Shown here: positions 1 through 38,100 of the stretch, piece by piece
Numbering within the stretch: the first letter of the stretch is position 1
How the letters are laid out: each line of letters starts with the position of its first letter
Position numbers and translations under genes: made by a program
IMG/VR virus record: IMGVR_UViG_3300020445_000003
Location: 1 to 55,050 of that record
Origin: a virus
Lineage: Duplodnaviria; Caudoviricetes
Strand: one strand, 5' to 3'
DNA: 55,050 bases
Notes under the pieces: generated by a model
The model's database searches: none
What the model was told of the DNA's origin: nothing
The model's input: the letters and a program-made list of their open reading frames with translations, nothing else

Positions 1-2926
1 AACCAGACATATACCTAACAAATGCACCATTCTGTCCCATATACACATTGGAACCCATCATTATATCAGTACCACCAGTATCATCAGTAGTTGATATTGC
101 AGCGTCTGCTAAACCAGTTCCATAAGCAGTCTGGAAACAGATAGGTGGTGTTGTCTGCGTAGCTCTTTTTGCTAAGAAAGCTAATTGAGAAGTAGGAGTA
201 GCAGTGTTTATACCAACAGAACCAAACATTCTAGTAGTACCAACAATTGCTAAACCAGATCCAATTCTATTATTATATGCATAATAAGCAGATCCAGGAT
301 CAGCAGCAACAATTGAACCAACTGATGCATAAGAGGTAGCATCAACTACATTTGTCTTGACAGCACTCCATCTCTTTGATGAAGTTCCACAAGTGTAAGT
401 AGTGTTATCACTAGGTTCAAGATGACCATCTGATGTAATGCGAAGTTTTTCTGATGCAGCTACACTCTGACCTCTTGTAATGAATACTAAATCAGAACCA
501 TAATCACTATCAGTTCCTTGCTTAACTGCTGCAATACCAGTTCCAGCATTCTTATGATAAGCATCTGCTGAAACTTCAAAAGCAATACCTACTGCATTAG
601 TTGCAGCATCTCCAGTTTGTTTTAGAACAACATCGTGCCAAGTATCTCCATCAGCTGCATCAAATGCTGTTGTTCTATTCGCAGGTAATATGGTTAATTT
701 AGAAATACCATGAACAGTTCCATCACCACTTATGGATACATCACCACTTGATGTAATGCGAAGTCTTTCTGTATTTCCACCAGTTGCAAAGTTTATATAA
801 CCTGTGGAACTATCTGCCATTATGGTTATATTAGCAGCATTTCCACCACCACTATTAGCATATAAGGCACCATCACCAGCACCTAATGCACCGTATGCTG
901 CATGGCCTGTTCCATATTTTAAGAGACCAATATAAGTACCAACACTATCTTCTGCTCGTACAAATGTTGATGCATTTGCGGCTGTTGCCTTATTTCTTAT
1001 TATTGATTGAGCTGCACTACCAGCATGATGCTGAACATCAAGTAATACACCAGGAGCATCAGTTCCGATACCTAAATTGCCACTGGTAGTTAATACCATT
1101 AATCGGTTAGGTCCACCTCCACCAGCAGTACCTGACCACCATTCATGCATTCTTGTTTCAGTTCCACCTAAATTTGCAGGACTAGCATTACCAGTATAAA
1201 TTAAAGCACCTGCATTATTTGTTCCAATCGTTCCATATCCATATCCGTGACCTAATAATAATCCATCGTATTGTGATGTAGATTTTACTTGAAGTAATGC
1301 GTTTTGTCCATTAGTGCCAGCAACAGGACTTGCTCCATCTATTTTTACTAATCCAGCTGATGTAATGCGAAGTCTTTCTGATTGACTAGTTGCACCAGCT
1401 GCTGTAGTTGAGAAGATAAGTCTACCTGGAACAGAACTTATACCTACACCTCCATCCATCTCTGCTTCTATTGCTGCTACTCTGTAATACTGACCATCAC
1501 CATTTGCAGCTCTAAAGTGTAGTTCTCCTATTGTATCTCCATCCTGAACAATTGTATTTGTTCCTATAGTTGCATTTCTTGATTTTGTAAAATTAATTCT
1601 TGCACCATTTACATTATTAGAAAATCCAAAAAGTTCAACCGTATTATCGTTTCCTCTTGCTACTTGTAATAGACAACCCTCTGATAAATTAGCAGTGTGA
1701 CCAATTAATGTTCTTCCTGATGAGTCGATGCGAAGTCTTTCTTTTGCTCCAGAGTTATCTTCTGTTCTAAAGACAATATTTCCATGAGAATTAGTATCTC
1801 TCTGTTGGAAATATAATGCTCCACCTGTTGAAAATATTTTTGCATAATCATCTGTTCCAGCAGTATCAGTTAATGTAATTCTTGGTGCTGACCCTGACAT
1901 ATGGAATAAAGATGTTGGATTATTAGTTCCGACACCAACATTACCCCCAGATAATATTGTAAGTCTTTCATCACCAGTAGATACATTTCCATTAGTATAA
2001 AAATTCAGACTATCACCATTATTTTTATAGTAAATACCACCCATAGCAGCACCACCAGTATCACCAAAAATAATTCTAGGATTACCAGTAGTCGTTCCAT
2101 CTCTTAACCATAGAGTAGGTGCTCCACCAGTTTTACCTTGTACAGTTAATTCATATGCATCATTATCAACTCCTGCAGATATCGCACCATTTGAATGAAT
2201 ACGAAGTCTTTCTTTTGCGTGTTCATTTATATTAGCATCTGTTGTCTTAAACAACATATCCATATTATTATTTCCATCTTGCACCACCTCAATAGATGAA
2301 TATCTTGAAGGATAATTCTGTGTAGGTGCAAATGCTAGACTTACCCCATTACCACTCGCATTAGACGCATGATTTAAAAGCATTGTGGTAGTCGAAACAC
2401 CACTAGTATCCTTTCTATTCCAAACTAATCCAGCACTATCAATATAGATTCTTGTGCTACCACCTGTTGCTATTTTAAATAAATTATCTCCAGGAAAACC
2501 CATCCAAGTATCATCATCCCCCAAATGATATATTGATTGTCCAATTCCGACACCACCACCAGATAGGATGCGAAGTCTTTCTGAACCTGCTGTTTCTACT
2601 GTAAATGTATCAACAGAAGGGAATCTTATCTTTGTATTACTATCACCTATATGTCTTATCGTATCAGCAATAGCTAAATCACCAGCAACATCTACTACTG
2701 CACTAAATTCACTATTACCAGTTACATCAATACCACCAGCAAGTACTTTAATACCTGTTCTTGCTGTTACAATACCAACAGAATCTATATTAGTTACATC
2801 GTCATATGTTAATGTCCCACCAATACTCACATTACCTGTAAATGTTGCTGCTACACCAGTTACATTTCTAATTGTATAATCCGAAGTTGGTGATACTACG
2901 CCACCAGTAACCTTAGTAAGTGCCAT
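1..2926 (-). CDS. Modular tail fibre protein, runs off the left end of the window (missing from the ORF track)
   Basis: ATG at 2926 next to the stop of the 110-aa ORF. Reads MALTKVTGG...GNVSIGGTLTYDDVTNIDSVGIVTARTGIKV..., a typical cyanophage fibre N-terminus. Six E(R/K)LRI repeats checked all fall in this frame. Confidence 0.85.
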   Translation of the reverse strand, partial: MALTKVTGGVVSPTSDYTIRNVTGVAATFTGNVSIGGTLTYDDVTNIDSVGIVTARTGIKVLAGGIDVTGNSEFSAVVDVAGDLAIADTIRHIGDSNTKIRFPSVDTFTVETAGSERLRILSGGGVGIGQSIYHLGDDDTWMGFPGDNLFKIATGGSTRIYIDSAGLVWNRKDTSGVSTTTMLLNHASNASGNGVSLAFAPTQNYPSRYSSIEVVQDGNNNMDMLFKTTDANINEHAKERLRIHSNGAISAGVDNDAYELTVQGKTGGAPTLWLRDGTTTGNPRIIFGDTGGAAMGGIYYKNNGDSLNFYTNGNVSTGDERLTILSGGNVGVGTNNPTSLFHMSGSAPRITLTDTAGTDDYAKIFSTGGALYFQQRDTNSHGNIVFRTEDNSGAKERLRIDSSGRTLIGHTANLSEGCLLQVARGNDNTVELFGFSNNVNGARINFTKSRNATIGTNTIVQDGDTIGELHFRAANGDGQYYRVAAIEAEMDGGVGISSVPGRLIFSTTAAGATSQSERLRITSAGLVKIDGASPVAGTNGQNALLQVKSTSQYDGLLLGHGYGYGTIGTNNAGALIYTGNASPANLGGTETRMHEWWSGTAGGGGPNRLMVLTTSGNLGIGTDAPGVLLDVQHHAGSAAQSIIRNKATAANASTFVRAEDSVGTYIGLLKYGTGHAAYGALGAGDGALYANSGGGNAANITIMADSSTGYINFATGGNTERLRITSSGDVSISGDGTVHGISKLTILPANRTTAFDAADGDTWHDVVLKQTGDAATNAVGIAFEVSADAYHKNAGTGIAAVKQGTDSDYGSDLVFITRGQSVAASEKLRITSDGHLEPSDNTTYTCGTSSKRWSAVKTNVVDATSYASVGSIVAADPGSAYYAYNNRIGSGLAIVGTTRMFGSVGINTATPTSQLAFLAKRATQTTPPICFQTAYGTGLADAAISTTDDTGGTDIMMGSNVYMGQNGAFVRYMSG

Positions 2927-2927
2927 A

Positions 2928-3260
2928 TTAGGTAATTTCCATTATCGTGAGTGCTACATCAAGAGTGCTATTAGTATCACTGACTGCTGTAAGTGTATCT
3001 GTTGATTCTAGTACTATTTTATTTCCTTGCATAAACTCCAAAGATGATCCATACGGTAAAGGAACATTTTTCATCAAACTAATATCATCTGTGGATGCTC
3101 TAGTTATTCCCAATCCAACATTGATTGAACTACCAGAGGTATTTGCAAGAGTTACTCCAATAACAACTGTCGTTGTAGCGGGACTACTAGGTACAACATA
3201 AACATTTGATGTTGCAGTACCTACATTATTTTTCGTTTTTAATTTAAAAGTATTTGCCAT
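2928..3260 (-). CDS. Small fibre-associated virion protein (110 aa)
   Basis: ORF track. Beta-rich MANTFK...ALTIMEIT type found next to cyanophage fibre genes; tightly packed between neighbours. Confidence 0.7.
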   Translation of the reverse strand: MANTFKLKTKNNVGTATSNVYVVPSSPATTTVVIGVTLANTSGSSINVGLGITRASTDDISLMKNVPLPYGSSLEFMQGNKIVLESTDTLTAVSDTNSTLDVALTIMEIT

Positions 3261-3262: not shown

Positions 3263-4339
3263 TTATCCTAGAGCGATTGCCATTGCGACTGCATCATTAA
3301 GTGCTGTTTCTGATACACTAACACCACCCACTTTAACGTCTGTTTCACTATTTATTGCACCAGAAACATCCAACATATAATCAGGTATTTCAGATCCGAT
3401 ACCAACATTACCACCATTAAAATATGATTTTCCATTTCCTCTAAGATGAATCTTAGTTGATCCATTATGTTTAAGATTTAATCTACATTCTTCAGTACTA
3501 CCTTCTTTCCATACTTGAAATAATTCTTGTGCATGAGACCTAAGTTCAAATAGATCATCATCATTAAGTCGAACTGCAACTCTTTCAGAATTAGACATTA
3601 CAGTGGTATTAATACCAACATATCCACTTGAGTCGATGCGAAGTCTTTCTACATCACCTGTAGATGCAGCAACATAAGTATTTTGAACTATGAATGCTTC
3701 CTGACCATCAACTGATTGAAGTATAGCACCAGTTGTTCCACCTCTAATATACAAATTATTATTTGTATGATGTGTAAGTCCTGCTGTCTCAAAAGAAGTT
3801 GATTGTCCTGTAAGTTTTAATACACCTGACGATGTGATGCGAAGTGCTTCTGCTAAACTTGCTCCACTGGTTCTAGTGTGGAATGCCATAAAACCATCAT
3901 CATAATTTGTATCATCACTACCAGTTACATATTGAATTCTAGCTACAGAATTTCCATTCCATTTTCCATCTATAATTGCAAACTGAGTATCTTTTTGTCT
4001 TGCAGAATCAAATGTAAAAGAATTAAATGAATTAGCAGTTGTCTTTAATCTTAAATCAGCAGGACCACTTGTATTCCAAACATCTAAAGTTTTTGCTGGT
4101 ATTTCACTTCCGATACCTACCTTCTTATTGCCACTATAATGTATTGATCCTCCACCAAAATTCTCTGTCCAGGGAGTAAGTAATGCTGCAGTATCTGCTA
4201 TTCCTACATTATTTGTATCCCTTTTAGTATATAAACGACCATCATACGTATTAAGAGCTAATTCTCCTAATAATAAATCTGATTCTATTGGCCTTTTATC
4301 TGCTGTGGCAGATCTCCTTAACCTAAACTTCGTAGCCAT
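3263..4339 (-). CDS. Short tail fibre-like protein (358 aa)
   Basis: N-terminal KFRLRRS...P...LLLGELALNTYDGRLY fibre-anchor motif, VGIGS..P repeats, two xxLRI junctions, C-terminal AVAMAIALG. Confidence 0.75.
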   Translation of the reverse strand: MATKFRLRRSATADKRPIESDLLLGELALNTYDGRLYTKRDTNNVGIADTAALLTPWTENFGGGSIHYSGNKKVGIGSEIPAKTLDVWNTSGPADLRLKTTANSFNSFTFDSARQKDTQFAIIDGKWNGNSVARIQYVTGSDDTNYDDGFMAFHTRTSGASLAEALRITSSGVLKLTGQSTSFETAGLTHHTNNNLYIRGGTTGAILQSVDGQEAFIVQNTYVAASTGDVERLRIDSSGYVGINTTVMSNSERVAVRLNDDDLFELRSHAQELFQVWKEGSTEECRLNLKHNGSTKIHLRGNGKSYFNGGNVGIGSEIPDYMLDVSGAINSETDVKVGGVSVSETALNDAVAMAIALG

Positions 4340-4638: not shown

Positions 4639-7137
4639 ATGGCTCTAAAGATATACCAAAAATTTGGATTAAGAAGAGATAATGATCTTGGCGATTTAAA
4701 CAATCAAACATTAGCATTAACTAATGTATTAAATGATATACAATCTGGAACAGAATTTAAAGCAGAAGACTTAGGAGTAATAAAGGGCATGTATGCCCAA
4801 GGTCTTGAAAGTAGTACATTTTTGGAAGTAGGTGGAAGTGCAGAAGAAACTACTACTTCAGATGGAGTTACAACACCATTAACACCATATGTTTCATATC
4901 AAAATAGATTAGATTTAAGTGAAACTTATGCAGGAACACCAAGAATATTTGGTGGAGATGGACCTAATGTAAAATATTATGATTTTGATCAAGTAGCAGA
5001 GCCAATCCCAACTGATCCAACTATCAATACAGGTATGTGGATAAGTGGTACTGAACCATTTGCAGAAGATCAATTCTGGGAAAGAGGACAATTTGCATGG
5101 GATAGAAAACTACATGAAAAATCTGCATCTGTAAACGGTGGAATAGAATGGGAAGGTTATTATGTTCCGACTGGAACAGGAAATCATAGTTTTACTGTAG
5201 GTACTACTGGATGTTGGACATTTGATTTCCAAAAAATTGATTATACTAATGCATTTCAACCAAATACTGACTGGGATACGGCACCAGGTGGAGCATATAA
5301 TGCACAAAGGAGTGATACTCATAACACAATATATAAAAATTATGCTTTCATAAGACCAGAAGTAAATATTTCTTGTTATCGTTATGTAGATACTAATAAT
5401 GCTACTGGTACAGTTCTACAAATAGTTAATGCATCAGATTATAATAAAGTTGCTGCTGGAATGACTTGCATAAATGGTAGTTATATTGAAGGTGGTAACG
5501 ATGGTGCTAAAGTATCAGAGTATGATACAGCTAATGGAAGAATAACACTAGATACAACACTAGTTGATGGAAGTACAAACAATAGTCCAGTTAAAAATGC
5601 ATTATCTAATACTTCTTCTGGTGCTCAAGACATTAAATTTGTACAAGAAACCAACCAATCCACATCTGCTACATGGAAAATTGATTATCCTCTAACTGCA
5701 GGAACTCCATATAGAATTAAATTTAGATATTTTACTCCCCAAATTTGGGATTCAAATAAAAGTAATAGATTTATGAATATAGTTGAATCTATACCTAACG
5801 GTGGAGGTCAAAGTGAATTAAATTATAAAAAATTATATAATTTAACTTATGATTTTAGTGAGAAAGAAAAAGGATCCTTTAATAAATTTTTGGATGCTTC
5901 CATTTTATTTGGTGGGGGAACTACTGGAGGAACAACTCACGCAAATTACACTAGCATAAAAACAACTAAAAAAATAGACGGAAGATATGATCCAATAAAC
6001 TTAACATTAACAAATGATTATGATAGTACTACAGTTAATGGAAAAAAATATCCTTACAAAAAAATAGAAGTTTGGACAGATACAAAAGAAGTTGCACAAA
6101 ATTCAAGTTCTATGGCAATAGATAATACTACTGGAATAGAAGTTGGAAACTACATATATGATCATAGTTGGGCAACAAGTGGAGCAACTGGAACCAAATA
6201 TATTGCAGACAAAACAAGAATTGTAGAAGTTATTGCAAATAGTAGTATTATATTATCTTCTCCATTTTTAGCTACTGGTTCAGCAACATTTAAAATTATT
6301 GAGCATCGTGGACATATAAAAAGATTTGTTGCAGATCATAACAACAGTAACACTTTAACATTAAAAGCTAATACTCCAACTGGTAATAATGATCCAAATC
6401 AAGATGATGAATTAAAGAAAAAAATGATAGTTGTAGGTGAACATTTACCGATCAATACTCAAATAGATGTTAGACCAACTACTGCTACTACAGTCGTAGT
6501 AACGGCAAATACTACGGGAGGTAATCTTACCAATAAACCTTATTACGTTTATGATTACCAGGGATTGATTAATGATTCTATGCTTGCATTTTGTGAACCA
6601 AGTACTGATTCAGACCAGAACATTTGCCTAACTGTAGAAGATGACATTCCAGAAGGTAGTACAAGTATTACATTTTCTACAGCTGGAGTATCACAGGCAG
6701 CATGGAATTCAATACCCAATAATAGCAACAGAGTTCTTGGATATTACTTTGCTTCTGGTACTACTGCATCTAAGAGTGGAAGTAGAACTCTAAACTTAAG
6801 TACTGCAACAGCAAAATTAATTAAAGCAGGAAATAACTTTACAGTAACTGCTGATACTGGTACTGAAGACAAATCATTATGTTGTCCACCAAAAGACACT
6901 GCACCACCATTCGCATCAACCGATGATGGAATGGTGACTGTAGAAAATCACGAAACTCTAGATGTTCTTTCTGGTAATGTTATATTTGATAATATAAGAG
7001 CAACTATTCTTCCATCAACTGAAATAGTAGAACCTCCTTCAGTTGATTATGATGATTTGTTAGGTACACTCCTAGATAAAAGAATTAGATTTAAAGCAGG
7101 AGATGGCAATACTTATAGATTGTTTGTAAGTACTTAA
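4639..7137 (+). CDS. Putative virion structural protein with PA14-like carbohydrate-binding domain (832 aa)
   Basis: GGIEWEGYYVPTGTGNHSFTV...GTPYRIKFRYF matches the PA14/GLEYA pattern; Thr/Asn/Gly-rich beta segments. Confidence 0.65.
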   Translation: MALKIYQKFGLRRDNDLGDLNNQTLALTNVLNDIQSGTEFKAEDLGVIKGMYAQGLESSTFLEVGGSAEETTTSDGVTTPLTPYVSYQNRLDLSETYAGTPRIFGGDGPNVKYYDFDQVAEPIPTDPTINTGMWISGTEPFAEDQFWERGQFAWDRKLHEKSASVNGGIEWEGYYVPTGTGNHSFTVGTTGCWTFDFQKIDYTNAFQPNTDWDTAPGGAYNAQRSDTHNTIYKNYAFIRPEVNISCYRYVDTNNATGTVLQIVNASDYNKVAAGMTCINGSYIEGGNDGAKVSEYDTANGRITLDTTLVDGSTNNSPVKNALSNTSSGAQDIKFVQETNQSTSATWKIDYPLTAGTPYRIKFRYFTPQIWDSNKSNRFMNIVESIPNGGGQSELNYKKLYNLTYDFSEKEKGSFNKFLDASILFGGGTTGGTTHANYTSIKTTKKIDGRYDPINLTLTNDYDSTTVNGKKYPYKKIEVWTDTKEVAQNSSSMAIDNTTGIEVGNYIYDHSWATSGATGTKYIADKTRIVEVIANSSIILSSPFLATGSATFKIIEHRGHIKRFVADHNNSNTLTLKANTPTGNNDPNQDDELKKKMIVVGEHLPINTQIDVRPTTATTVVVTANTTGGNLTNKPYYVYDYQGLINDSMLAFCEPSTDSDQNICLTVEDDIPEGSTSITFSTAGVSQAAWNSIPNNSNRVLGYYFASGTTASKSGSRTLNLSTATAKLIKAGNNFTVTADTGTEDKSLCCPPKDTAPPFASTDDGMVTVENHETLDVLSGNVIFDNIRATILPSTEIVEPPSVDYDDLLGTLLDKRIRFKAGDGNTYRLFVST

Positions 7138-7142
7138 GTTAT

Positions 7143-8588
7143 TCATTCTCTTTCTACAAGAATATAATACGTTTCTCCATTTATTATCATTGGAAATTTA
7201 TAAACATTTGGGTTACTGCCACTAAGTTTATTCACTAATTTGCTATCACTAGCAGTAATATCTACAATCTCAGCACTAAGTCCCTTTATTTTAATTTGTC
7301 CAGCTGTAACTACACCAGAATCATTAGTTACTCCACCAAACTCTAAATCACCGATAGTAAATTCATCGGAATGAGAAAGTGTTGAAAAAAGATTATAATA
7401 CAGGGTGTTAGGCGTGGTACTACTTTTTTGCCAAGGGTTATTATCTGTAGAGAATGCACGAGTATCTCCAATAAAAATACCAGGACTATCTGGAGTTACA
7501 TTGTCATCTTTCGTTGCATTTAAAGCAGTTGCACCATCATTATACCCTTGAGGATCTTTAACTCTTACTGATCCTTCAAATTTAACATCTCTATCACTTA
7601 ATATATCTTTATTAGTTTTATATTTCTTTTCTATTAAAAACTCAGAATATTCATAAGCAGTCACATTATTACTAAAACTACCATTTATTCCAGTATCACC
7701 CAAATAACTAAAATTTTCATCTAATATTTCTGGTTTTATGAATGCAGTAAGATTTGGTGCAGTTACTCCATCTTTACGAATAAACCCAAATGTTGAAGTA
7801 AAAGATCCATTATTTGAATTTACTGAAATTATTGGTATGGTACTAACTCCAACAGCATCACCAGAAGGTGTAGTCGAAATTTTAAAAGCATTTCTTGCAT
7901 TAGAACTACAAACATAATAATCTTTATTGGGAATTAAAGTCTCAGTAGCAAGACTACCTACAGTACCAGAACCATTACCACTTCTATCTCCAATATTAAA
8001 AGTAATTTCTTCATTAACTTGTATAGTATCATCATTCGTAAATGTACTATCAGTTAATTCCCATTCTGAAATATATGTAGTAATAACCTTTGATAATGTA
8101 TTTTCAGAATTATCTGCAATTGTAACAGTAAATGAATCTTCTTTATTAACAATTCCATCTTCATTATTATTTGGTTCATACTCCCAAACTCCTGCTGCAT
8201 TAATAGTTGCTGTTCCTCTAGTTGCTTGAGTTGTTACTGCATAATTAGTACCAATTCCAGTTAATATACTTTTATCATTACTTGTTAAAATAATACTATT
8301 AGTAACTTTTCGACTTTTATTGGATGTAAAAAAATGTGGTGCTTTAGTATTTACATTATTCACTTCATAATTTGCATCATTAGTTTCATTGGTAGTAAGA
8401 GTAATTACTAGTGGAGGTGTATTACCTGGTCCCAATATAGACGTATTCCTTAAGTTATTGACAAGTATTGAAAGATCTTTTGAAATGCCAGGATTATATA
8501 AATTATCCCACGCAGCATCATCATCATTAGATTCTTGTAAATTAAGATCTATTCTAAATCCTTGATTCTGTATCGGTACTTTAGACAT
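7143..8588 (-). CDS. Putative virion structural protein with Ig/cadherin-like (VCBS-type) insert (481 aa)
   Basis: YAVTTQATRGTATINAAGVWEYEP...DSFTVTIAD resembles bacterial Ig-like repeats. Confidence 0.6.
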   Translation of the reverse strand: MSKVPIQNQGFRIDLNLQESNDDDAAWDNLYNPGISKDLSILVNNLRNTSILGPGNTPPLVITLTTNETNDANYEVNNVNTKAPHFFTSNKSRKVTNSIILTSNDKSILTGIGTNYAVTTQATRGTATINAAGVWEYEPNNNEDGIVNKEDSFTVTIADNSENTLSKVITTYISEWELTDSTFTNDDTIQVNEEITFNIGDRSGNGSGTVGSLATETLIPNKDYYVCSSNARNAFKISTTPSGDAVGVSTIPIISVNSNNGSFTSTFGFIRKDGVTAPNLTAFIKPEILDENFSYLGDTGINGSFSNNVTAYEYSEFLIEKKYKTNKDILSDRDVKFEGSVRVKDPQGYNDGATALNATKDDNVTPDSPGIFIGDTRAFSTDNNPWQKSSTTPNTLYYNLFSTLSHSDEFTIGDLEFGGVTNDSGVVTAGQIKIKGLSAEIVDITASDSKLVNKLSGSNPNVYKFPMIINGETYYILVERE

Positions 8589-8589: not shown

Positions 8590-11500
8590 TTAGTTGTATC
8601 CTGGAATATTCCAATTAGCTTGTGTTTTTAAGAAAGTAACAATTTCTAAAGACTCTTCGCTAATTGCAAGGTGTTGTTGTGGTGCATTATTATCTGAATT
8701 ACCATTAATATAATTATTTCTCATATCTATTGTAACTCCACCTCTATTACTTGCATTATAACTAGCAAGAGCATCTGCAATAATTTTCTCTAATTCTCCA
8801 GCAGGTAATTGATTATTAGTAACGTCAAAATACCTCAATCGAGTAAGAGAAGCAATTGAACCTTCTGTATACCTATCAAACTTATTATTATATAGTGCAA
8901 TATATCTTACTCTAGGACATCCACCGAAGTTAGGAATATCATCTTCTATACTATTATAATGGCAATAGAATATATCTAGATTACTCAAATTACTAAACTC
9001 AGATAATTTAGTAAATCCAGTGCTATCTCCTCTTCTATTTTGGTGAAGATATAGTCTTCTCAATGATGTTAAATCAGTAAAAGGTGGTATAGTTCCATAT
9101 AACTCATTATTATGTAGATATATGTAATCAAGTTGCCTATTGGAAGAGAATGTTGGTAGTGGTCCTGTAAATCTATTAGAGTTAAGATACAAATATCTTA
9201 TTTTTGTCATTGTAGTAAATATTGGTAATCTACCACTAATTTGATAATTAGAATTAATCAATAGATTCCTCATTTCAATTGTATCTAAAAATGCATTTTG
9301 ATGTATTCCATCTTCAATTGGATCACTTGTATTATTACCTTTAGCAAAAGTTGTGCTCGAAAAATAAAAAGTCTCTAATTTTGCACATTGACTAAAGGTT
9401 GAAGCACTTATTACATGGTTTTGATCTGCAGTGGCTACATTTGGATCTCCACCAGTTATACGAGTACCACGAATATCAACATATCTCAGGTTAGAATTAC
9501 TACTAAAAGAAGGAATAGGACCAGTTAGACGAGAAGCATAGCAACGTATTTCTTGCAAAGCACTACAACCTGCAAGTTTATATCCAGTATGTTTTCCATC
9601 AGTAGTACCAGAAGTATTCTGACTCGTAAAGAATGAAGTAGTAGTATAATTATATTGATTAAGAAAATGAGTTAAGTTTAATCTATTTGGTATAGTTGGC
9701 ATTTCTAGTCCTGTATGTCCCATATCGATGGTTTTGAGATTCATACTCTGTAATTCAAAAGTAGTGTCAGAACTAAGATAATAATTATTATAAATGTCAA
9801 GAGTTTCTAAATCTGGTAAATTCATAATAGAATATCTACCAGTACTAGTACTAACCCACGATCCATCTCTATAAACTTGTCTGGTGTCATCCTGTTTCTG
9901 TACAGCAACAGTAATAGTTACCACACTGCCTTTTTGATCAGCAGTAAAATTCTTATCTACCGTTACTATATTACCTTTTATTCTTATTACTCTTGTATTA
10001 GATGGTATTCCTGTGTCACTACCTGTATTTGAAAGTACAGCACCAGGTGCTAATTTATAAGTATTTCCACTACAATTATATATTACATCCTTACCATTTT
10101 CATAATTTCCAGTAAAAGTAAAAGTTGCAGTATCTGTAGTATTAGTACCAGTTACATCGATTCTACGAAAACTATTATTACGAGCATTGAAATTTATTAT
10201 AGTTTTAGGAACATTGGGTAATGTAGCAGTCGCACTATTACTAGAATTCCTATCATTATCATCAGGATAAAAACTTTGACCACCACCCCTATAAAAACTC
10301 AAAGTCGTTAGTTCAGGAAAACGATCTACAAATATATTTCTTTCTATAGATCCATTGAAAGTTCTACCCATATATATTTCTTTCATCGTAATTGGCATCT
10401 TATTCGTAATTTCCTGCGTCAATATCCTTTCTGATCTAGTTTCACTTAAATGAAGAGGATTAGTAGAAATATCTAAAACTTGTAATGCAGGAGTTATACT
10501 ATTAAAATTAGAAAAATTAGAAATATTATTATTATTTAACGAAAAAGAAGTTAATTGGCTAAATTTAGCAACAGGCAACTCTTCAATATTAGCAGATACA
10601 AGTCGAATTGATGTAATTTCATCCGCAGGATAATAAAGTTCAATAAATCTTTCTCTAGATCTAGAAGTTCGATATCTTGGTATACTTAAAGAATTTTTAT
10701 AATTAGAATAACTATTTCTATCATCAGTTCTAACTACTTTCCAACTAGGTGCTATGGTATTACCATCAGCAGAAATAGTATTAACAGTACAGTTAACATT
10801 ATCCAAACTTCTAAAAAATCCCCTAAATGCAAGTGGAATACCTTTCATTGCATAAAGATAGCGAACTTCTCCATCAAGATGAATTTTAATCTTAGAAGTA
10901 GGAATTTCAGATGGAAATTCAACTTGCGTTGGAGTTAATGTGGTCTGTAATCTTCTTCCACTAGCACCACTTGTACTAGTATAGGTAATTTCAGCAATTT
11001 CATCAGTCTCTTGTGGATCGGCTGTAGATGATGCCTGTTCTCCAAATCTCAATAAACCTCTATCTGCACCAGAATTATATTTTATTTGTATTCTTGAACC
11101 ATAAGATATTCTAGCTAATCTTTGAATATTAAGATTCTGACTATTTGCTCTACCATCAGAAGAACTCCAAGCACTAACTCGTGAAGTTGAGATGTCTGCA
11201 AGTGCAACACGAAAAGGATCATCACTAGTATCAGTAACCGTCATATTCAGCTCTACTGGTACACCAGTCATAGTACCCAACAATTTTATTGCATCACCAA
11301 CACTATAACCACTTCCTTTATTATTTACCGTTACATTAACATTAGCACTACCACCATCAACATCAACTACAACATCAAAAGTAGCCTTTCCATCTCCTGG
11401 TATTTCATCTTCTCTATCTAGTATATAGTAAACAGTGGTTACATCAGGGTCTATATCAAGTATAGCACCAGTAGCAGAAAAGAAACGTCCTTTATTCACA

Positions 11501-29077: not shown

Positions 29078-32000
29078 TTATTTAATAAGATAAAAATCTT
29101 TTGTTGAATCAATTTCTCTTAATTTTATCCAGGTAGAAGGAATAACTGCTGTTTTACGGACATAACACTGCCCAAGCAAACCAATAGTATCCCATTCTTT
29201 TCTATCTTCTCTAGGAGTATAAGTTTGAGATTCATCCCAATCAGGATTACGTTTTACACTAACTTTAGGTCTAACATTACCCATATAAGGATAACTATAC
29301 AGTTGATTACCATCAGCATCTTTAACTAATTCAAGTTCAAGTCTACCCCATTCATCACGGAGATTAGCACCTTGCCATTTCATACTTCCACTGTTACCAA
29401 CAAATGCAGCAGTACCAGAAACAACACCTATAACAGTATCACCATCTTCGGCAATCTTAATTTTACCTGTTAGACCATCTATAGCAACAGTATGTCCTAT
29501 ACGATCTTCACCTGAAGGATTGCCATCAGACCACTCAAACATTTCAGCAAAGTCATAATTCTGGTTAGAGTTCCAATTATTGTCAGCACCTGCATTACCT
29601 GTATCAGTACGAAAAACAAATTGCTTCTGTTCTGTAGTTCCACCACTCTTCCTCATTGTAAAGTAATCATCCACACTTAAATATGAATTACCATCGGTTC
29701 TATGTAACTGACCGTCAGCATTATAACTATTCCATACATCTGCTGCAGTAACACCCTGACCTTGAGTTCCAACATTAACGTCAAATCTAATACCGTTTGA
29801 ACCAGCTTGGAAAGCAGTCTGCTGTTGAGTATTTGTAGTCTTAGTAAAACAATTAATAACATCTGCCCAACCACCTGCTGCATAATGTTGTAATTTCATA
29901 GTACCATCAGCTTTAGCTAACCATTGCCACTTATCCTCATTATCATCTCCATTGTCTGCAAACATCTTAAAACCAGCAGATGCATTTTGGGTTCCTTTTA
30001 TAGTTAATCCAGATCCATTAATTAGATGCAATCCAATATTACCTCCATCATTACCAATAAATGCATGTTTAGTAGCACTCCAACTAGAAGATCCAGATGA
30101 AGTACCAGCTTGTGTTCCCAACCAGAATTCTATGTCACCTTTTTCATTCTGATTTGTATTTCCATTTAAAATTCCTCTAAATGCAATGGCAGCACCAGGA
30201 TTCCAATGATTTGCTTTACCCCAACCATTTTGTTCTTTCCACATACCTGCTCCAATGGAAACTAAACCACTAACAGCGTCTACTCCAACACAACCATATA
30301 ATTCTTTAGTTGCACCATTACCACTGTCATTTTTGTACATAACAATATCAGGGCCAGCAGTACTACTCCAACCACTTCCTGGCATATCTGAACCATGATT
30401 GACACCAAGACCAATCTTACCATCTCCTGAAATATAAAACCTACTCGTGTCTTGATTATTTCCATTCATCGGTTGCTTACGAGTAAAGAAATCAAAATCA
30501 CCTGACCATTGATCAGATTTAGCTGTGAATACAAGTGTTCCACCATCTTGTTTGATAGTGCCTTCTCTATTATCGAAAGAAGTATCTAATAATGTAAATC
30601 CAGGACTTCCACTATTAATTACAGTAATATCACTAGTAAATGAAGAAATCCCAGTAACATTTAAAGTACCAGCTATTGATGTATTACCAGTTGCATCTGC
30701 TACAGTGAACTTATCAGTATCACATTTAATACCACCATTGGCCCTTAACTCACCACTTACAGTTGTAGTGCCAATAAGAGATGATTGTCCTATTACAGCA
30801 AGACCACCAGCTATACCCAAATCACCACTTGCAGTTGTATTACCTGTAAAAGTTTGAGTCCCAGTAACTGCTAAATTGCCACTTAAAGTAAGATCAGCAC
30901 CAGTACATCCAGCAGCTAAGTCATCTGCAGTACCAACAGAGATACCAGTTAAATTTGAACCATTTCCATAAAAATGAGATGCAGTACATATACCAGTAGA
31001 TTTAATATTACCAGTATTAGCATCAAATCTTACATAGTTTGAAGAAAGAAATTCTGGAGAATCTGCAGATTGATCTGCACCTACCGTCATACCATCTCTA
31101 TTAATGGTAGTAGAAGAGAAATGACTTAATCCACTACCACCTAAACCACCAGATCCACCAGTATAATTTACACTATAAAGTCTAGCCGCATTAGGATCAT
31201 ATTTTAAATGATCATCATTAGTATCAATATAAAGATCTTGATTTCCAGTGCTATTTTGAGAACAAAATACAACTTGATTCCAACCAGCATTTTTTTCTTG
31301 AATATTTACTTTAGTGGCAGCAGAAGCAGTGATACCAGTTAGATTAGAACCATCTATTGCAGGTAAAGTACCAGTTATATTTGCAGCAGGAATATTTGTT
31401 AAATTAGTAGCACTTATTGCAGGTAAAGCACCTGAAAGTTTTGATGCAGTAAGTGTAGATATTCTTGCATCAGCAACTGTACCAGTTAGTTGACCAGCAG
31501 GTAAATTAGTTAAGTTTGCTCCTGAACCAGTTATAGTACCATTAAGATATAAATTATTAAACTTTAATCCACTACTTCCTATATCATAAGTATCACCAGT
31601 TCCAGGTAATATATCATCATCAACAACAATACCAGTACCATCAATAGCAAAAATTTGATTTGAATTATAATTTAATTTAATCGCACCATTATTTGTTGAT
31701 GTAAGATCAAGTGCTCCAGTGGAGCTTACTGTAGAAGCAGTTATATCCCCTGAAAAAGTCGCACTCGTACCTGTTAACGCACCAGTTAAAGTTCCACCTG
31801 CGAGAGGTAATTTAGTGGCGATACTATTTGTTACTGTCGTTGAGAAATTAGCATCATCTCCCAATGCAGCAGCTAATTCATTGAGTGTGTTTAATGCATC
31901 TGGTGAACTATCAACCAAGTTTGATATTGCTGTGTCTGTATAAGATGTCGTTGCTATTTTTGTACTATTGTTTCCTGCTGATTGGGTCGTAGCTGTGTCT

Positions 32001-32419
32001 AATCTTGCTGCTGCTATTGTTCCTGTTAATTGACCTGCTGGAAGTGAAGTTAAACTTGCACCTGACCCGCTAAATGTTGTTGCTACTAAGGCTCCACTAC
32101 CATCACCACTAGCGACAACTAAATTTCCACTTGCCGCTTTTACTGTCCAAGAACGAGTACCTGTTTGATCGAAACCGAGTCTTGATCCGTTTTTTATAGA
32201 TAAACCAGAATCTCCAGTGACATTAACATTAGACTGAGTAAGGAATCCTATTCCATCTACTGTCCCTGTAACTGTGATATTACCACCAACAGAAAGATTA
32301 CCACTCGCAGTAGTTGTTGCAGCAGTTATATTAAGATTTCCACCACTAGGACTCTCGATAGTAGGAGTTCCATCACCATCTAATTTTATTTTCTTTACAC
32401 CAAAACTCTTTTCTGCCAT
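29078..32419 (-). CDS. Tail fibre with C-terminal peptidase-G2-like intramolecular chaperone (1113 aa)
   Basis: LVDSSPDALNTLNELAAALGDDANF fibre motif; LPAGQLTGT repeats; C-terminal DFAEMFEWSDGNP...RIG...IGVVS...YTPREDRKEW..IGLLGQ. Confidence 0.8.
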   Translation of the reverse strand: MAEKSFGVKKIKLDGDGTPTIESPSGGNLNITAATTTASGNLSVGGNITVTGTVDGIGFLTQSNVNVTGDSGLSIKNGSRLGFDQTGTRSWTVKAASGNLVVASGDGSGALVATTFSGSGASLTSLPAGQLTGTIAAARLDTATTQSAGNNSTKIATTSYTDTAISNLVDSSPDALNTLNELAAALGDDANFSTTVTNSIATKLPLAGGTLTGALTGTSATFSGDITASTVSSTGALDLTSTNNGAIKLNYNSNQIFAIDGTGIVVDDDILPGTGDTYDIGSSGLKFNNLYLNGTITGSGANLTNLPAGQLTGTVADARISTLTASKLSGALPAISATNLTNIPAANITGTLPAIDGSNLTGITASAATKVNIQEKNAGWNQVVFCSQNSTGNQDLYIDTNDDHLKYDPNAARLYSVNYTGGSGGLGGSGLSHFSSTTINRDGMTVGADQSADSPEFLSSNYVRFDANTGNIKSTGICTASHFYGNGSNLTGISVGTADDLAAGCTGADLTLSGNLAVTGTQTFTGNTTASGDLGIAGGLAVIGQSSLIGTTTVSGELRANGGIKCDTDKFTVADATGNTSIAGTLNVTGISSFTSDITVINSGSPGFTLLDTSFDNREGTIKQDGGTLVFTAKSDQWSGDFDFFTRKQPMNGNNQDTSRFYISGDGKIGLGVNHGSDMPGSGWSSTAGPDIVMYKNDSGNGATKELYGCVGVDAVSGLVSIGAGMWKEQNGWGKANHWNPGAAIAFRGILNGNTNQNEKGDIEFWLGTQAGTSSGSSSWSATKHAFIGNDGGNIGLHLINGSGLTIKGTQNASAGFKMFADNGDDNEDKWQWLAKADGTMKLQHYAAGGWADVINCFTKTTNTQQQTAFQAGSNGIRFDVNVGTQGQGVTAADVWNSYNADGQLHRTDGNSYLSVDDYFTMRKSGGTTEQKQFVFRTDTGNAGADNNWNSNQNYDFAEMFEWSDGNPSGEDRIGHTVAIDGLTGKIKIAEDGDTVIGVVSGTAAFVGNSGSMKWQGANLRDEWGRLELELVKDADGNQLYSYPYMGNVRPKVSVKRNPDWDESQTYTPREDRKEWDTIGLLGQCYVRKTAVIPSTWIKLREIDSTKDFYLIK

Positions 32420-32435: not shown

Positions 32436-32442
32436 TATTTAT
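32436..32442 (-). promoter_or_regulatory. T4-type late promoter (ATAAATA)
   Basis: Overlaps the S8 gene stop codon, about 17 nt upstream of ATG 32419. Confidence 0.5.
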
Positions 32443-35105
32443 GTTGTAATATTTAAAGTTCCAGTAACATTTAAAGTTCCAGCAGATGTATTACCATCCA
32501 AAGGAGCATCATATAAAACTTTTGGTGATCCGCCATGTAAGGAATATTGATCGTCAAAATCACTATCATTAGCAGTTGTTCCCTCATTACCAACATAAAA
32601 CTGAGAACTTGATTGTGCAGAGACATGGTTACTTACCCAATTTTTTAATTCTTTCCAACCCCACGACCTTCTATGTTCCAATTTAGTTGCCAATAAACCA
32701 CAAGCAGTTGGTGACGCAAAACTAGATCCACTATAACCCTGATTAAAATTCAATGTGGAAGTTAAATTCGTTCCATTTACTGTAATTGTATATGTACTAT
32801 CATTTCTATAATATGTTTTAGTTATTGCCCATGAATTTGGCCTTGCAACATTGGATTTGTCGGCATTACTATTAGGAGCATCTCTCAATGTAGCAGTTAA
32901 AGTATTATGTCCAGGTGCATAGAAATCTACTGCATTTCCACTATAAGAATAATAAATTTTACTCTCTTGAGTATTTGACTTTCCAATATCAGAAGTAGCA
33001 GCCGCTGCAAATGATGGATTAACTATTTCACCATAAGTAGGTGAAGAAGAATCTGTATCTTCAAATTCTCCAGCACTACATGGAAAACTTAATCGATTAA
33101 TAAACGCAGATGCATCAGATGCTTGACTATCTAAAGCAGTAGTTGCGGTTACATTATTAGCATTCCCAAAATAATTATTATAATCGGGATGTGTTGATTT
33201 GACACACTTTTGATTATTATTTCCTGCTGCTGCAACAACAATCACTCCTTCATCAATAGCAGATTTTGCTGCAACTTGTCTTGAATGTGTTGATTTAAAC
33301 CAAGGTTCTATATGTGGATTATAATAATTATTTTTCAAATATTTTGGTGATGTAATCTTATTATCTGCATCATATACAATTGAACCTATCTCACCACTAC
33401 CTGCAGTTCCATTACCAGGAGTCCTCCAAAAATAATGTGTTGCATTAGTAGATGTCAAATTATACCCCGATCCCCAACTATGATTTGTAATTGTAGGATT
33501 CTTATTACCATGATTAGAATTATTTGGTTTATACTTATGAAATATTTTTAGCATCTTAAATGCATCTTCATTACTTGGAACAATTAAATCATCCTCTAAA
33601 TGTCCATGAACCCATTTATTTGCATTATATGCCATCCCAAGAGTTTTTCCAAATATCAAAGAAGAAACAGCAGTACCATGAGAATTAAATTGTTGTGAAG
33701 GATACGCAGAATGTGATCCTTGAATAAATGGTCTGGTATATCCATATGATGTAAATGCCATAGAAGGTACACTAATATATCCAAAAAAATCATCACCACC
33801 AGACAAAAACCTAGCAGATCTAACACTACCAATTCCTTGCCACCAATTCAATGCAGCTGTTTGTGTAGGAACTCTAGTTCCATCCCAACGAATTTCTGTT
33901 CTATTCGTTTGATCAGCATTAAAAAACTCTGGATCAAGGTAATATGGAGCATCCAAATATAAAGATAATACTCCACATTTTCCATTGGGATCTAATGCAT
34001 TCCCACCAATATAATCATCTGGTTCTCCAACACCTGTTTTCACAAATTCAACATGACCAAACCAAGTGCCACTATCAAAAACAATTATATCAACATCCTT
34101 TCCTGTAGATCTTTTAGGAGTATTTGATGTAATAGTTGTAGATTTAGAAGATCCACTCCAAGGATCATTTTTTTGAGTACATCGTAATAAAGTATGTCCC
34201 GATTTACTTAATGTTGAAGAAGGTGAATTAAATGTTCCTATGCATACTGTAGTTCCATTTGAATAACCACCATAAGCTGTTCCATAATAATTATAACCTG
34301 TTGTACGAAAATTATTCCCATCCAAATCAGTATTACTCCAAGCAACACCTGTGGCACTTGATAAATTAGAATTATTAAATCTAACTTCTCCAGAACTTGG
34401 AGCAGAAGTAATAGAAGTACTACTATTATCATATCTAAAACGAAACTTCCTATCATCTTTACTTGTCCTCTCAAAAAGGAATGTTATAATAGTCCCATCA
34501 GGAATAGATGTAGGAAAATTAGCTGAATATGTCTGAGTGACTTCATGTGCAGTTGTAAATGATGCAGCAGCATATCCAGTACCAGTAGTACCATTAATCA
34601 AACCAATGTTTATATACCAGGTATCTTGATTAGTAAAAGTTAATTCTCTATTATGATTTACTGGAGACCCATACCTATCTGTTACACCATAATTTAATAA
34701 TAACTCTTTCTCAAAACAATCTCCACCATATGTAGCTCTATAATAACTCTCATCTATATTGACATCCAAAACTTTTGGATGTTTTTTAATATCTTCTACC
34801 TCTGCATCTGTTAATAGATAATATCCTATACGATCAATTAACTCTGATTCATCGCAACACTCACAAGAATCAGATGGAATATTATCTTCCAATGTTCCAT
34901 CCTTTATCAATACTTCATGAATAGACTTCCAGTCTTCACCATTAGAGCAAACTACCATATATCTCTTTTTACCAGTTCCTTCTGGTACCGAAGGTGCTCC
35001 AGATTTCTTTAAAAATTCTCGTCTTCTGTTTATAATTTCTTGTGGATTGGTAAGAGTAGATATACCAACTTTATAATCTTTAAACTCTTGTTCAGTAATA
35101 CTCAT
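32439..35105 (-). CDS. Subtilisin-like (S8) serine peptidase (888 aa)
   Basis: D-H-S triad motifs in order: VDIIVFDSG, SHGTAVSS, GSSFASP; oxyanion-hole motif VVAAAGN. Confidence 0.85.
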   Translation of the reverse strand: MSITEQEFKDYKVGISTLTNPQEIINRRREFLKKSGAPSVPEGTGKKRYMVVCSNGEDWKSIHEVLIKDGTLEDNIPSDSCECCDESELIDRIGYYLLTDAEVEDIKKHPKVLDVNIDESYYRATYGGDCFEKELLLNYGVTDRYGSPVNHNRELTFTNQDTWYINIGLINGTTGTGYAAASFTTAHEVTQTYSANFPTSIPDGTIITFLFERTSKDDRKFRFRYDNSSTSITSAPSSGEVRFNNSNLSSATGVAWSNTDLDGNNFRTTGYNYYGTAYGGYSNGTTVCIGTFNSPSSTLSKSGHTLLRCTQKNDPWSGSSKSTTITSNTPKRSTGKDVDIIVFDSGTWFGHVEFVKTGVGEPDDYIGGNALDPNGKCGVLSLYLDAPYYLDPEFFNADQTNRTEIRWDGTRVPTQTAALNWWQGIGSVRSARFLSGGDDFFGYISVPSMAFTSYGYTRPFIQGSHSAYPSQQFNSHGTAVSSLIFGKTLGMAYNANKWVHGHLEDDLIVPSNEDAFKMLKIFHKYKPNNSNHGNKNPTITNHSWGSGYNLTSTNATHYFWRTPGNGTAGSGEIGSIVYDADNKITSPKYLKNNYYNPHIEPWFKSTHSRQVAAKSAIDEGVIVVAAAGNNNQKCVKSTHPDYNNYFGNANNVTATTALDSQASDASAFINRLSFPCSAGEFEDTDSSSPTYGEIVNPSFAAAATSDIGKSNTQESKIYYSYSGNAVDFYAPGHNTLTATLRDAPNSNADKSNVARPNSWAITKTYYRNDSTYTITVNGTNLTSTLNFNQGYSGSSFASPTACGLLATKLEHRRSWGWKELKNWVSNHVSAQSSSQFYVGNEGTTANDSDFDDQYSLHGGSPKVLYDAPLDGNTSAGTLNVTGTLNITT

Positions 35106-35106: not shown

Positions 35107-38100
35107 TTACACTACCACCTGCTTAATAAATTTGACAGTTGTTGTACCACTATTACCTGGAGTGAATTTCACCAATACATTACTACCACTAGTAGAAGTA
35201 CTAAATGTACCAAGAACAGATGCACTATACATTACAGCATACTCGGTATGATGATGATTAGTACCATCACACATAACCAAAAGTTTCTGTGCTTGCATTC
35301 CTGTACTATGACTGATGTACATAGTATACTCTAAGACATTAAAAGAATTCAAAGCAACTGTAGAAACAGTCTGAGCAGTAGTACCACCACTAAGAGTCAC
35401 AGTTGTCGTAACAGCAGCATCTGCAGTAACAGTACCAGAACTATTTGTAAGACCAGTACTGAATGTAAGTGGTGTTTGATATGTGTGCGTATGAGATGTA
35501 GTAGAATATGAATTAGTATCTACAGTACCATTTGCCTTCAAGAATTGACTTGATGTTCCACCGCTTTTAACTAAAGTGGTTGCAGTAAGTGATCCTCTAA
35601 TTACTCCATCATTTGAACTGTTAACTACATTTGAGTTTGTGATAATCGCATTACCCATATAACCATGAGCAGTACACTGATAATATAAAACATTTGGTGT
35701 ATCATCACTTATTGTAATCTCAGTATAAGTATTCTGGAAATTTACATCTGTGGTATAATTTGTAGTTTTATCTGCTTCAAGATAAAATTTTAATGGATGA
35801 CTTCCTGTATTGTCATTTGTAAATCTATAAGTTCTACCTGGTGTTAATGTAAGTATTGGTGCAAATACTCCATCAATTTTATATCCACTACCAGATCCAG
35901 TTCCGTTATATCTGTGAGTGCTATCCTTTGTAGCTACTGTGACAGCAAAGGTGGTTGTACTACCATGAGGTGCTTGAAGGTAATCAAAACCAGTGAGAGC
36001 ATCTGCAGTAACATCTGCTACCGTAATATCTGGTGTTCCAGTTAATCCTTGAGCGTTTGTAGCACTTGCAACACTACCAGATGAAGTTACATAAACACTG
36101 CCATCTACAGAACCATCTGCCTTTAAGAATTGTGATGAGGTTCCACCACTCTTTACGAATGATCCTGCAGTTATATCTAATGCAGGTGTAATACTATCTA
36201 CTGTTATAACAATATCACTACCACCACCAATAGATGAACCAGTGAAAGTTAATGTTTCATTTACAGCAAAATTTCTACCACTAGCAGTTTTTGTAATAGT
36301 TACTGTGTTTGCTGCATCATCAGCAATGGTTATAGTAAAACCAGCACCAGTACCTGATACATTACCACTTAAATTAGTAAATGTATATGTACCAGGAGTT
36401 CTAGTTTGATTACTAGCATCATCTGACCATGTAACAATAGACGCAATATTTTTAATAGATCCATTACTAAGGAGAAGACCATCAGATTCGATACGAAGTC
36501 TTTCAGTAGATGATGAACCAGTTTTAAATATAAATGCTCCGTTTGTTCCAAAAGCATTAAAGTTTAATACATCAGATGCAACCCAAATATCTGTATTTTG
36601 ATCATTAGGACTATTAGTATCTGATAATTGAAGAGCACCTGCTGATGTGATGCGAAGTCTTTCTGTTGTGTTTGTTCTAAATGCCATGTAATTGTCTACA
36701 TGGTTATATTGAATTGATCCTGTTAAGTTAGAATTTGCAGCGTCATTAAAAATAAGCCAACCATCAGCATCAGCAGCAGAAAATACTGTTATTCCATTAT
36801 GACCAACTCCAGAACCAACTACTAAATTATCAGCAGCAGCGTTCATCGAACCACCTGTAGTATTTCCGATCAATACACGTCCACTTGAGTCGATGCGAAG
36901 TCTTTCTTCAGCTACTGAAGAATCATCAGGTACTGTAAAAAATGTTAATCTACCAGCATGATCAGAACTATCTCCTCCTTGATCCCAAGCTAAGTCTGCC
37001 TCTCCTTTTATAACTGCGCCAGGATCTCCTGTAGTATCTCCACAGAAATTAATTTGACCTAATATATTATCTACTGCTGGAGCTGTTCTTTTCCATAAAT
37101 TTAATTGTGCTTCTCCTGTAGCACTACCAATATTACCAACTATATTAAAGTTGGCGTTATTAGTTGCTCCTGATGTAGTTGCAGCATTGTGACCAGCCAC
37201 CACTACTCCAGTTGATGTGATGCGAACTATTTCTGTACCACTAGACATCAAAGCAAGTGCATGTGCAGTATCTGTTCCAAAGATCATCGATGTGTCTGCA
37301 TCTTTATAAATCAGTTTTGCCTGTACAGCACCACCAGATCTCTGCCAAGTTTGAATATCTACATTATTTGATGCAGAATAATTACCTGTTACTAAAAGAG
37401 CATTTTGACCAGCAGCACCACCCTTACACTCAACCTCACCATCTGCGTGGATGCGAAGTCTTTCAGAACCTCCTGTTGAGAATTTAAGTGGATTTGATGT
37501 AATAGTTGCTACTGTTACAGTAATATCAGCACCACCACCAATAGAAGAACCAGGTATAGTTAATGTTTCATTCACTGCATAATGTGTACCACCAGAAGTT
37601 ACTGTAATCGCAGGAACTGTACTAGTAGCAATAACTACAGAGAAATTAGCACCCGTACCTGATACACTACCAGCAAGTTTAGATACAGCATATGTGCCAT
37701 TAGTTCTACTATTATCCGTAGCAGCATTACTTGTAATAGTGTCAATAGAATCAACACCATGAATGGATCCATTAACTGCAATACCAGTATCGGTAACACG
37801 AAGACTTTCTTTATTTGTACTTGCAAACCTTAATGTCTCTCCTCTGAATCCTATGTCCGTAAGAGATCCATTATCTTTAAAAGCAACTAGAGCAGGTACA
37901 TTTCCAACTTCACTCTGAGAACCATTAAATGCTACATTTTTATTTGTGGATATATGTGCTACTATTCTACCATTACCAGCAATAGTAGCATTACTACTTC
38001 CAACGCAAATTGAATCTGAAAGGGAGTATGTAAATGTTTTATCATTTACATTCAAACCAATATCTATATTATGACCTGCTATAAAACCTATAAGTTGATC

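Follow-up and report, generated by a model that had tools for sequence, protein, structure and literature searches.

Why should a word of 21 nucleotides (nt) be spelled almost alike, silent positions included, at one module boundary after another in three tail fibre genes of a single phage, when the modules between these boundaries are divergent? The question is raised by positions 1 to 55,050 of the IMG/VR virus record IMGVR_UViG_3300020445_000003 (Duplodnaviria; Caudoviricetes), a stretch of 55,050 bases with 34% G+C that is part of a larger genome and is called here the window. The word encodes the peptide ERLRIxS, which is followed by an xGxVGIGTxxP loop, as read from the sequence. Our answer, to which we give a probability of about 0.7, is that the words serve as short-homology crossover joints for the in-frame exchange of fibre modules, by means of general recombination and with no dedicated system. 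The genes concerned are the following:

2-2926, minus strand: fibre gene A, 975 amino acids (aa) in the window, extending past the window end; 6 junction words and 2 degenerate copies
3263-4339, minus strand: fibre gene B, 358 aa; 2 junction words; PHROG tail fibre families
35107-40443, minus strand: fibre gene C, 1778 aa; 5 junction words in a single block, 36484-37464

The 14-mer GAAAGACTTCGCAT has 13 matches in the window at no more than two mismatches: 8 copies are exact, 3 deviate at one position and 2 at two, and the minus strand carries all of them. The mean for shuffled versions of the window was 0.22, and none of 100 shuffles reached 13. In all 13 copies the peptide follows the scheme E-R/K/A/I-L/V-R-I-x-S/A. 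A sequence-only reading of this DNA had placed 13 copies in the three fibre genes, and every one was found where it had been reported, with divergent modules between. They are given below together with two degenerate junctions scored by a hidden Markov model (HMM); the coordinates of the 21-nt word count from the E codon.

431-451, minus strand: junction word EKLRITS, GAA AAA CTT CGC ATT ACA TCA
749-769, minus strand: junction word ERLRITS, GAA AGA CTT CGC ATT ACA TCA
1085-1105, minus strand: degenerate junction within GPNRLMVLTTSGNLGIGTDAPG; HMM 5.3 bits, under the 6-bit cut used for counting; the match to locus L146 ends there
1358-1378, minus strand: junction word ERLRITS; the upstream module matches locus L156, the downstream module L146
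1721-1741, minus strand: junction word ERLRIDS
1949-1969, minus strand: degenerate junction ERLTILS, Thr (ACA) for the second Arg; HMM 9.7 bits
2192-2212, minus strand: junction word ERLRIHS, second Arg CGT
2561-2581, minus strand: junction word ERLRILS; contigs of the marine runs X2 and X3 match the window to 2581 and diverge beyond
3629-3649, minus strand: junction word ERLRIDS, within the 28-nt stretch 3623-3650
3830-3850, minus strand: junction word EALRITS, 2 mismatches to the 14-mer
36484-36504, minus strand: junction word ERLRIES, second Arg CGT
36643-36663, minus strand: junction word ERLRITS, full consensus spelling GAA AGA CTT CGC ATC ACA TCA
36886-36906, minus strand: junction word ERLRIDS, within a 28-nt stretch identical to 3623-3650
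37213-37233, minus strand: junction word EIVRITS, 2 mismatches, Val for Leu
37444-37464, minus strand: junction word ERLRIHA

Stretches 3623-3650 and 36880-36907, which belong to different genes, are identical over exactly 28 nt, just as had been stated. Weaker copies beyond the earlier list comprise, besides ERLTILS at 1949-1969, the peptide ESLRVTD, whose E codon lies at 37809, and, near 1105, a degenerate NRLMVLTTSGNLGIGT.

The exact 14-mer was found in at least 119 viral-contig stretches, and 31 of 121 loci carry two or more copies. The exact 20-mer also occurs in at least 119 viral stretches and has no match in 185,579 prokaryote species, each represented by a single genome. A degenerate DNA pattern, with the Leu, second Arg and Ile codons left free, was present in at least 119 stretches, and the 80 loci listed for it were analysed. 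Contigs bearing the 14-mer are otherwise 70-90% identical to the window, in short pieces only. At a cut of at least 6 bits, a 22-residue junction profile detected 857 copies in 168 of 219 sequences (218 loci and the window), compared with 2 in reversed decoys; a protein-based search for relatives of fibre A yielded only 2 loci. Among cultured phages, the isolate P-TIM68 (L219) has 6 copies at no more than one mismatch, 5 of them exact, and no copy at this threshold was found in the isolates P-SSM2, S-SM2, SynMITS9220M01 and Bellamy.

Homology between the fibre genes of these loci tends to stop at the word. All loci were compared against all, considering tracts of at least 85% identity and at least 100 nt whose ends lie inside both loci and inside junction-bearing open reading frames (ORFs). 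Of the 424 unique internal tract ends, 160 fell into the junction zone, which extends in both sequences from -15 to +63 nt relative to the E codon and where 10.0% of the ends were expected. They peak sharply at distances of 0-29 nt from this codon; as the ends are not independent, a binomial p of 8e-52 is an overstatement. The mosaic breakpoints between related fibres thus map to the motif. Partners were matched upstream of a junction only in 162 cases, downstream only in 116, and in 33 cases different partners were matched on the two sides. In 134 unique junction pairs, compared over 60 residues per side, the median identity was 83% on the near side and 22% on the far side, the latter being that of random module pairs. 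Among tracts of 85-99% identity, 178 stop at a junction and 21 run through it, and in explicit contig pairs an identity of about 90-100% drops to random exactly at the word. Three whole modules of fibre gene A are shared in this manner:

434-770, minus strand: whole module, 89.0% nt identity to L182; junction words at both ends
1076-1381, minus strand: whole module, 91.5% nt identity to L146; bounded by the junction word at 1378 and the degenerate junction near 1105
1365-1746, minus strand: whole module, 89.8% nt identity to L156; junction words at both ends, flanks unrelated

The flanks of these three modules show about 30% ungapped identity, and beyond the single module the loci L156, L182 and L146 (9-14 kb) have only short motif matches to the 55-kb window.

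Conservation at the silent sites of the word is at the DNA level and is confined to the word. The sequence-only reading had remarked on a CGC codon for the second Arg in 11 of 13 copies, in genes that otherwise use mostly AGA, and on a Leu that is always CTT. Counts over the 23 ORFs of at least 150 aa confirmed this: of 611 Arg codons, 14 (2.3%) are CGC and 423 (69%) AGA, and 11 of these 14 CGC codons are the second Arg of ERLRIxS, the two remaining copies having CGT. The first Arg of the word, only two codons before, is AGA whenever present. Leu is CTT in all 12 copies having it, against 299 of 1155 (26%) in the background, and of the 13 Ile codons 9 are ATC, against 89 of 1103 (8%). The same was seen in the first set of 121 viral loci, 76 of which hold 234 motif copies. 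In the 160 copies that remained after one ascertaining copy per locus (76 loci) had been set aside, the second Arg is CGC in 98, CGT in 45, AGA in 9, AGG in 5, CGA in 2 and CGG in 1. Relative to codon usage in the ORFs concerned, the Kullback-Leibler divergence amounts to 2.82 bits for the second Arg, 1.54 for Leu, 0.93 for Ile, 0.54 for Thr and 0.48 for Ser. By contrast, Gly at +8, conserved in 226 of 244 copies, gives 0.02 bits, i.e. background codon use, so the silent sites a few codons from the word are at equilibrium; codon choice in the motif is far from background, and the excess is local.

In the Synechococcus myovirus SynMITS9220M01 (L222; 6221, 6437 and 9984), the related peptide ERVRVTS is twice spelled GAG AGA GTT CGT GTA ACT TCT. 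Even at this deeper divergence, the first Arg keeps AGA and the second CGY.

The frozen codons come in two linked spellings. In the degenerate scan, 74 of the 80 listed loci had ERLRITS sites, 98 in total, with CTT for Leu in 77 and, for the second Arg, CGT in 45, CGC in 43, AGA in 5, CGA in 4 and CGG in 1. Two haplotypes prevail within these listed loci: spelling 1 (GAA AGA CTT CGC ATC ACA TCA) accounts for 24 sites in 16 loci and spelling 2 (GAA AGA CTT CGT ATA ACT TCT) for 26 sites, also in 16 loci. When one site per locus is taken, CGC/CGT against ACA/ACT gives 28:0 versus 9:22 (p 2e-9), and CGC/CGT against ATC/ATA gives 21:2 versus 5:24 (p 1e-7). Over all motif copies of 24 spelling-2 loci, CTT-CGT-ATA is by far the commonest combination (51 copies), and CTT-CGC-ATC is found twice. 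The 218 classifiable loci divide into 175 with spelling 1 (a number inflated by the first two scans), 40 with spelling 2 and 3 mixed ones. Mean G+C is 36.9% in spelling-1 loci and 39.1% in spelling-2 loci, therefore base composition is not the cause of the AT-richer spelling 2. Contigs also show a concordance of silent states above that of shuffles (0 of 2000), which is confounded by the 20-mer ascertainment and by contig base composition and to which we give little weight.

The two spellings share little. Tracts of at least 150 nt are common to 2.55% and 4.9% of locus pairs within the spellings, and to 0.33% of those between them. Where homologous modules do occur across the spellings, at 80-86% identity (L120/L298, L116/L306, L173/L298 and L125/L282), each is flanked by the spelling of its own pool. 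Four silent states that are linked in each lineage over many paralogous copies fit the signature of concerted evolution in recombining gene pools: the conserved feature is the identity among copies and not a particular codon. The suggestion of repeated conversion, made earlier from the window alone, is thus supported by two linked spellings, each nearly pure per contig.

We propose that the word, which marine T4-like myoviruses of one gene pool spell alike at almost all boundaries in different genes and genomes, would be the site at which crossovers between unrelated fibre genes are resolved. During co-infection, short-homology recombination would attach module N+1 of one phage to module N of a second, with reading frame and structural register preserved, and single modules of 200-440 nt would move as cassettes. 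DNA identity, and not protein-level selection alone, would place the crossovers, and the exchanges may alter host recognition. Repeated heteroduplex formation and conversion inside the word would homogenise its silent sites within the gene pool and give rise to lineage-specific spellings. The enzymes would presumably be those of the phage's general recombination and replication machinery, acting by strand annealing, strand invasion or template switching. The window encodes one component of this general T4-type machinery, a protein other than a site-specific recombinase:

54271-55050, minus strand: gp32-like single-strand DNA binding protein (Pfam PF08804 gp32, 2.7e-31)

Efficient T4 recombination requires homology longer than the word, so word-mediated exchanges would be rare and made visible by selection. 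The proposed 'cassette-shuffling system' holds as far as joints for exchange are concerned, and the word 'system' was an overstatement, as nothing dedicated to the task is encoded in the window.

Several points weigh against the word acting as a crossover joint. The three fibre genes of the window have no module in common and share only the motif; the swapping between phages that the sequence-only reading had proposed stands on the breakpoints and the three shared modules, but swapping within the genome is not supported. At junctions with consensus DNA (at most one mismatch) 273 tracts stop (93%) and 21 run through, at diverged junctions 128 stop (88%) and 18 run through. This test (odds ratio 1.8, p 0.08) does not discriminate, and because diverged junctions stop tracts almost as often, a need for DNA identity is not demonstrated. 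Part of the breakpoint pattern may be due to selection of chimeras that are in register. The two spellings could mark two clades that never meet, and their low cross-sharing is confounded with ancestry and ecology. Moreover, most loci were found via the motif itself, tract ends are non-independent and nearly all partners are metagenome assemblies. Motif-to-motif 'joints' in contigs of the marine runs, considered as rearranged molecules, were rejected, as their sides of only 20-27 nt are repeat matches; gaps in the coverage of the window by runs X3 and X4 carry no meaning either.

The Bdellovibrio beta-helix fibre Bd2133 (PDB 8ond_A) matches residues 605-742 of fibre A with an E value of 3.8e-5 and with both junctions aligned, SERMRIDTSGNLGLGTAAP of 8ond_A being aligned to a window junction; the word therefore probably encodes a strand that, with the loop after it, lies at the boundary of successive beta-helix modules of trimeric fibre proteins. 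According to Caulton et al. (2024, PMC10769870), the Bdellovibrio MAT fibres Bd2133 and Bd3182 are chains of trimeric beta-helix domains with the capping-loop consensus V-G-G/N-pi-x-x-P-x-x-x-L, similar beta-helical structures occur in the L-shaped fibre of phage T5 and in the K1F endosialidase, and fibre tips have been exchanged during evolution. By eye, this consensus is seen at some junctions of the window (NVGVGTNNPTSLFHM, NLGIGTDAPGVLLDV and NVGIGSEIPDYMLDV) and is absent or degenerate at others. The Bdellovibrio fibre is like the window in that SERMRIDTSGNLGLGTAAPTSALHV is aligned to the window junction at the E value given above, i.e. the protein motif is the same. It differs in that the work concerns protein structure in a predatory bacterium, and in that a shared DNA spelling and motif breakpoints are absent from the available part of the account (PMC10769870).

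This structural role opens the way to an explanation in which illegitimate recombination would occur anywhere, selection would keep the chimeras that are in register, DNA identity would play no role and the silent sites would be conserved for some other cause. Its merits are that the motif is located at a structural domain boundary and that the stop fraction is similar at consensus and diverged DNA. Nonetheless, we consider it rather unlikely, as it leaves the frozen silent sites, the linkage of spelling over four sites and the spelling purity of contigs unexplained; furthermore, random joins would rarely fall at the same codon in both parents, whereas the observed tract ends have their peak 0-29 nt from the E codon. 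A constraint on translation or RNA is a second alternative: the rare CGC (and ATC) might slow ribosomes at a module boundary for the sake of folding, or the word might form or bind an RNA element. CGC and ATC are indeed rare in the genome, and the word does lie at domain boundaries. Yet spelling 2 leaves the peptide unchanged while using CGT, ATA, ACT and TCT, all of them frequent in the background codon usage of ORFs that carry the motif, and the first Arg, two codons before, is always AGA. The existence of two spellings, with contigs almost pure for one of them, argues against any codon-specific or RNA function, and thirteen windows of 121 nt had fold z-scores of -1.38 to +1.85 and shared no fold. 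We therefore regard such a constraint as very improbable.

Conserved repeated sites inside receptor-binding genes also recall a shufflon, and a site-specific recombinase of the shufflon or invertase type, or a retroelement, might use the word as its site. Shufflons and invertases that vary phage tail fibres (Cin/Gin/Min, Rci) consist of a site-specific recombinase and inverted sites and switch within one genome. The word resembles them as a short repeated site in receptor-binding genes that gives new fibre combinations, but exchange here is between genomes over evolutionary time and the copies are direct: all 13 have the same orientation on the minus strand, so inversion is impossible. No site-specific recombinase family was found in 22 of the 23 ORFs of at least 150 aa, each scanned in at least one library, the 2663-aa ORF at 20667-28658 and ORFs shorter than 150 aa not having been scanned. 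This agrees with the earlier remark that no dedicated recombinase is visible, and although the genome extends beyond these 55 kb, we hold a programmed system to be extremely unlikely. On the other hand, the mosaics themselves might be artefacts if metagenome assemblers jumped between phages at the shared word and produced chimeric contigs. Nearly all partners are indeed metagenome contigs, and in four marine runs from four studies (X1-X4) the summed contig depth at word bins is about 10-30 times that of the neighbouring modules (window 300-2700), which can confuse assemblers. This excess means that the word is common to many more genomes than any single module, and contigs of these runs match the window up to the word and diverge beyond. 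Against artefacts, contigs of different metagenome numbers agree in their multi-module arrangements at 99.5% identity or more and across 1-8 junctions (L018/L025 cross 7, L011/L141 6, L172/L192 5, L017/L150 4 and L127/L209 4). In addition, the clonal isolate P-TIM68 carries the word, and the tracts it shares with contigs also end there. Contigs of run X1, possibly the source sample, cross the junctions at 451 and 1378 without mismatch, and the shared exact core is mostly 14-28 nt, below the usual assembly word sizes. Misassembly thus has a very small chance of being the explanation, and we return to short-homology joints used by general recombination as the reading we prefer.

The remainder of the window is that of a T4-like myovirus. 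Its structural genes include those of the baseplate hub, tail tube and tail proteins (PHROG) and of T4_baseplate and gp53 (Pfam), and among the encoded proteins are several fibre-like ones of very large size. For a conserved tail protein, identity to cultured phages does not exceed 39%, the nearest being marine Synechococcus and Prochlorococcus myoviruses, and DNA and protein searches with the fibre genes gave matches mainly in cyanomyoviruses. Fibre A belongs to the PHROG tail fibre families phrog_18345 (2e-72) and phrog_9942, and fibre C to phrog_30742 (tail fibre, 1.8e-40). No Pfam domain of a C-terminal S74 intramolecular chaperone was detected in fibres A, B and C, although fibre A is truncated at the end of the window. 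The genes adjoining fibre C (29078-32419 and 32439-35105, minus strand) contain a subtilase S8 domain (2.1e-12) and a Peptidase_G2 domain of intramolecular-chaperone autoproteolysis (1.7e-33); the latter forms the end of the separate gene 29078-32419.

Fibre C, which contains the repeat family D3, has further repeats of its own. A second repeated word of 69 nt, encoding GGTSSxFLKADGSVD, lies at 35495-35563, 36080-36148 and 38201-38269 (also 39475-39494 and 39586-39605); its copies, assigned to repeat families D2 and D6, show 72-87% identity to a reference copy, and it may be a further conserved joint of the ERLRIxS kind. A domain of about 235 nt is present in two copies, 36187-36422 and 37498-37727, which are 70-81% identical (families D4 and D5) and flank the five-junction beta-helix block, so that it looks as if this block lies between duplicated immunoglobulin-like domains. 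Elsewhere, a structural-module protein of 1209 aa (8590-12219, minus strand) has strong leucine-rich repeats (LRR_4 1.7e-25, LRR_8 5.6e-18), which are unusual within a phage virion gene cluster. The 832-aa ORF at 4639-7137, one of the few large ORFs on the plus strand, is located between minus-strand genes beside fibres A and B and is without a Pfam or PHROG match. In P-TIM68, two C-terminal ends of fibre genes (7024-7386 and about 9160-9436) have about 70-73% nt identity to the tail-fibre genes of podoviruses, namely Prochlorococcus phages P-SSP3 and P-SSP2 and several Pelagibacter isolates, and this similarity points to a sharing of fibre tips across phage families and hosts.

The closest precedent would be the adhesin and fibre locus of T-even phages. 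Their gp38 adhesin and distal tail-fibre genes are reported to recombine at conserved motifs, glycine-rich in gp38 (Tetart 1996, 1998, cited via Trojet et al. 2011, PMC3157838). As described there, these T4-type phages resemble the window in having variable recognition segments split by short conserved motifs and joined by general recombination with no dedicated enzyme. Nevertheless, their glycine-rich motifs surround omega loops, whereas ERLRIxS stands at the boundaries of beta-helix modules; our word, moreover, has silent sites frozen in two linked spellings, and whole modules move between unrelated genes over hundreds of uncultured marine phages. The T-even case, as described, rests on laboratory crosses, and ours purely on the comparison of sequences. 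No gp38 family appeared among the Pfam, PHROG and NCBIfam hits, and the motif is neither the glycine-rich one of gp38 nor the His box of gp37. A second parallel is offered by GRINS, repeats in assembly-line polyketide synthase genes that, according to Nivina et al. (2021, PMC8256042), are linked to gene conversion. Like the word, they are described as short DNA-level elements of modular genes tied to gene conversion and to faster diversification of modules; they differ in genes, organisms and element size and are defined by intense nucleotide skews (PMC8256042). In full-text literature searches, no paper among those listed described the junction word, which does not prove its absence from publication.

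The fibre-module joints are a clear new example of a known way in which phages rebuild the proteins that recognise their hosts. Tail fibres determine host range, and marine phages kill a large share of ocean cyanobacteria, while ideas on how the uncultured ones keep up with changing hosts are for the most part inference. Across hundreds of contigs, the exchanged unit can here be seen directly as a single beta-helix module of 200-440 nt, and so can the site of exchange, a word of 15-22 nt. The two spellings provide a testable handle on the argument over phage mosaicism, i.e. recombination guided by junctions versus random joins filtered by selection. A tentative suggestion, which we consider possible but doubtful, is that the spelling acts as a compatibility code, by which phages of the same spelling exchange fibre modules and those of the other spelling cannot. 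If this were true, the spelling would set the borders of recombining pools of host-recognition genes in the ocean, and second-order selection on the capacity for exchange would maintain it. The word can also serve as a landmark by which fibre genes are cut into modules, modules tracked in metagenomes and in-register chimeric fibres designed in laboratory cyanophages.

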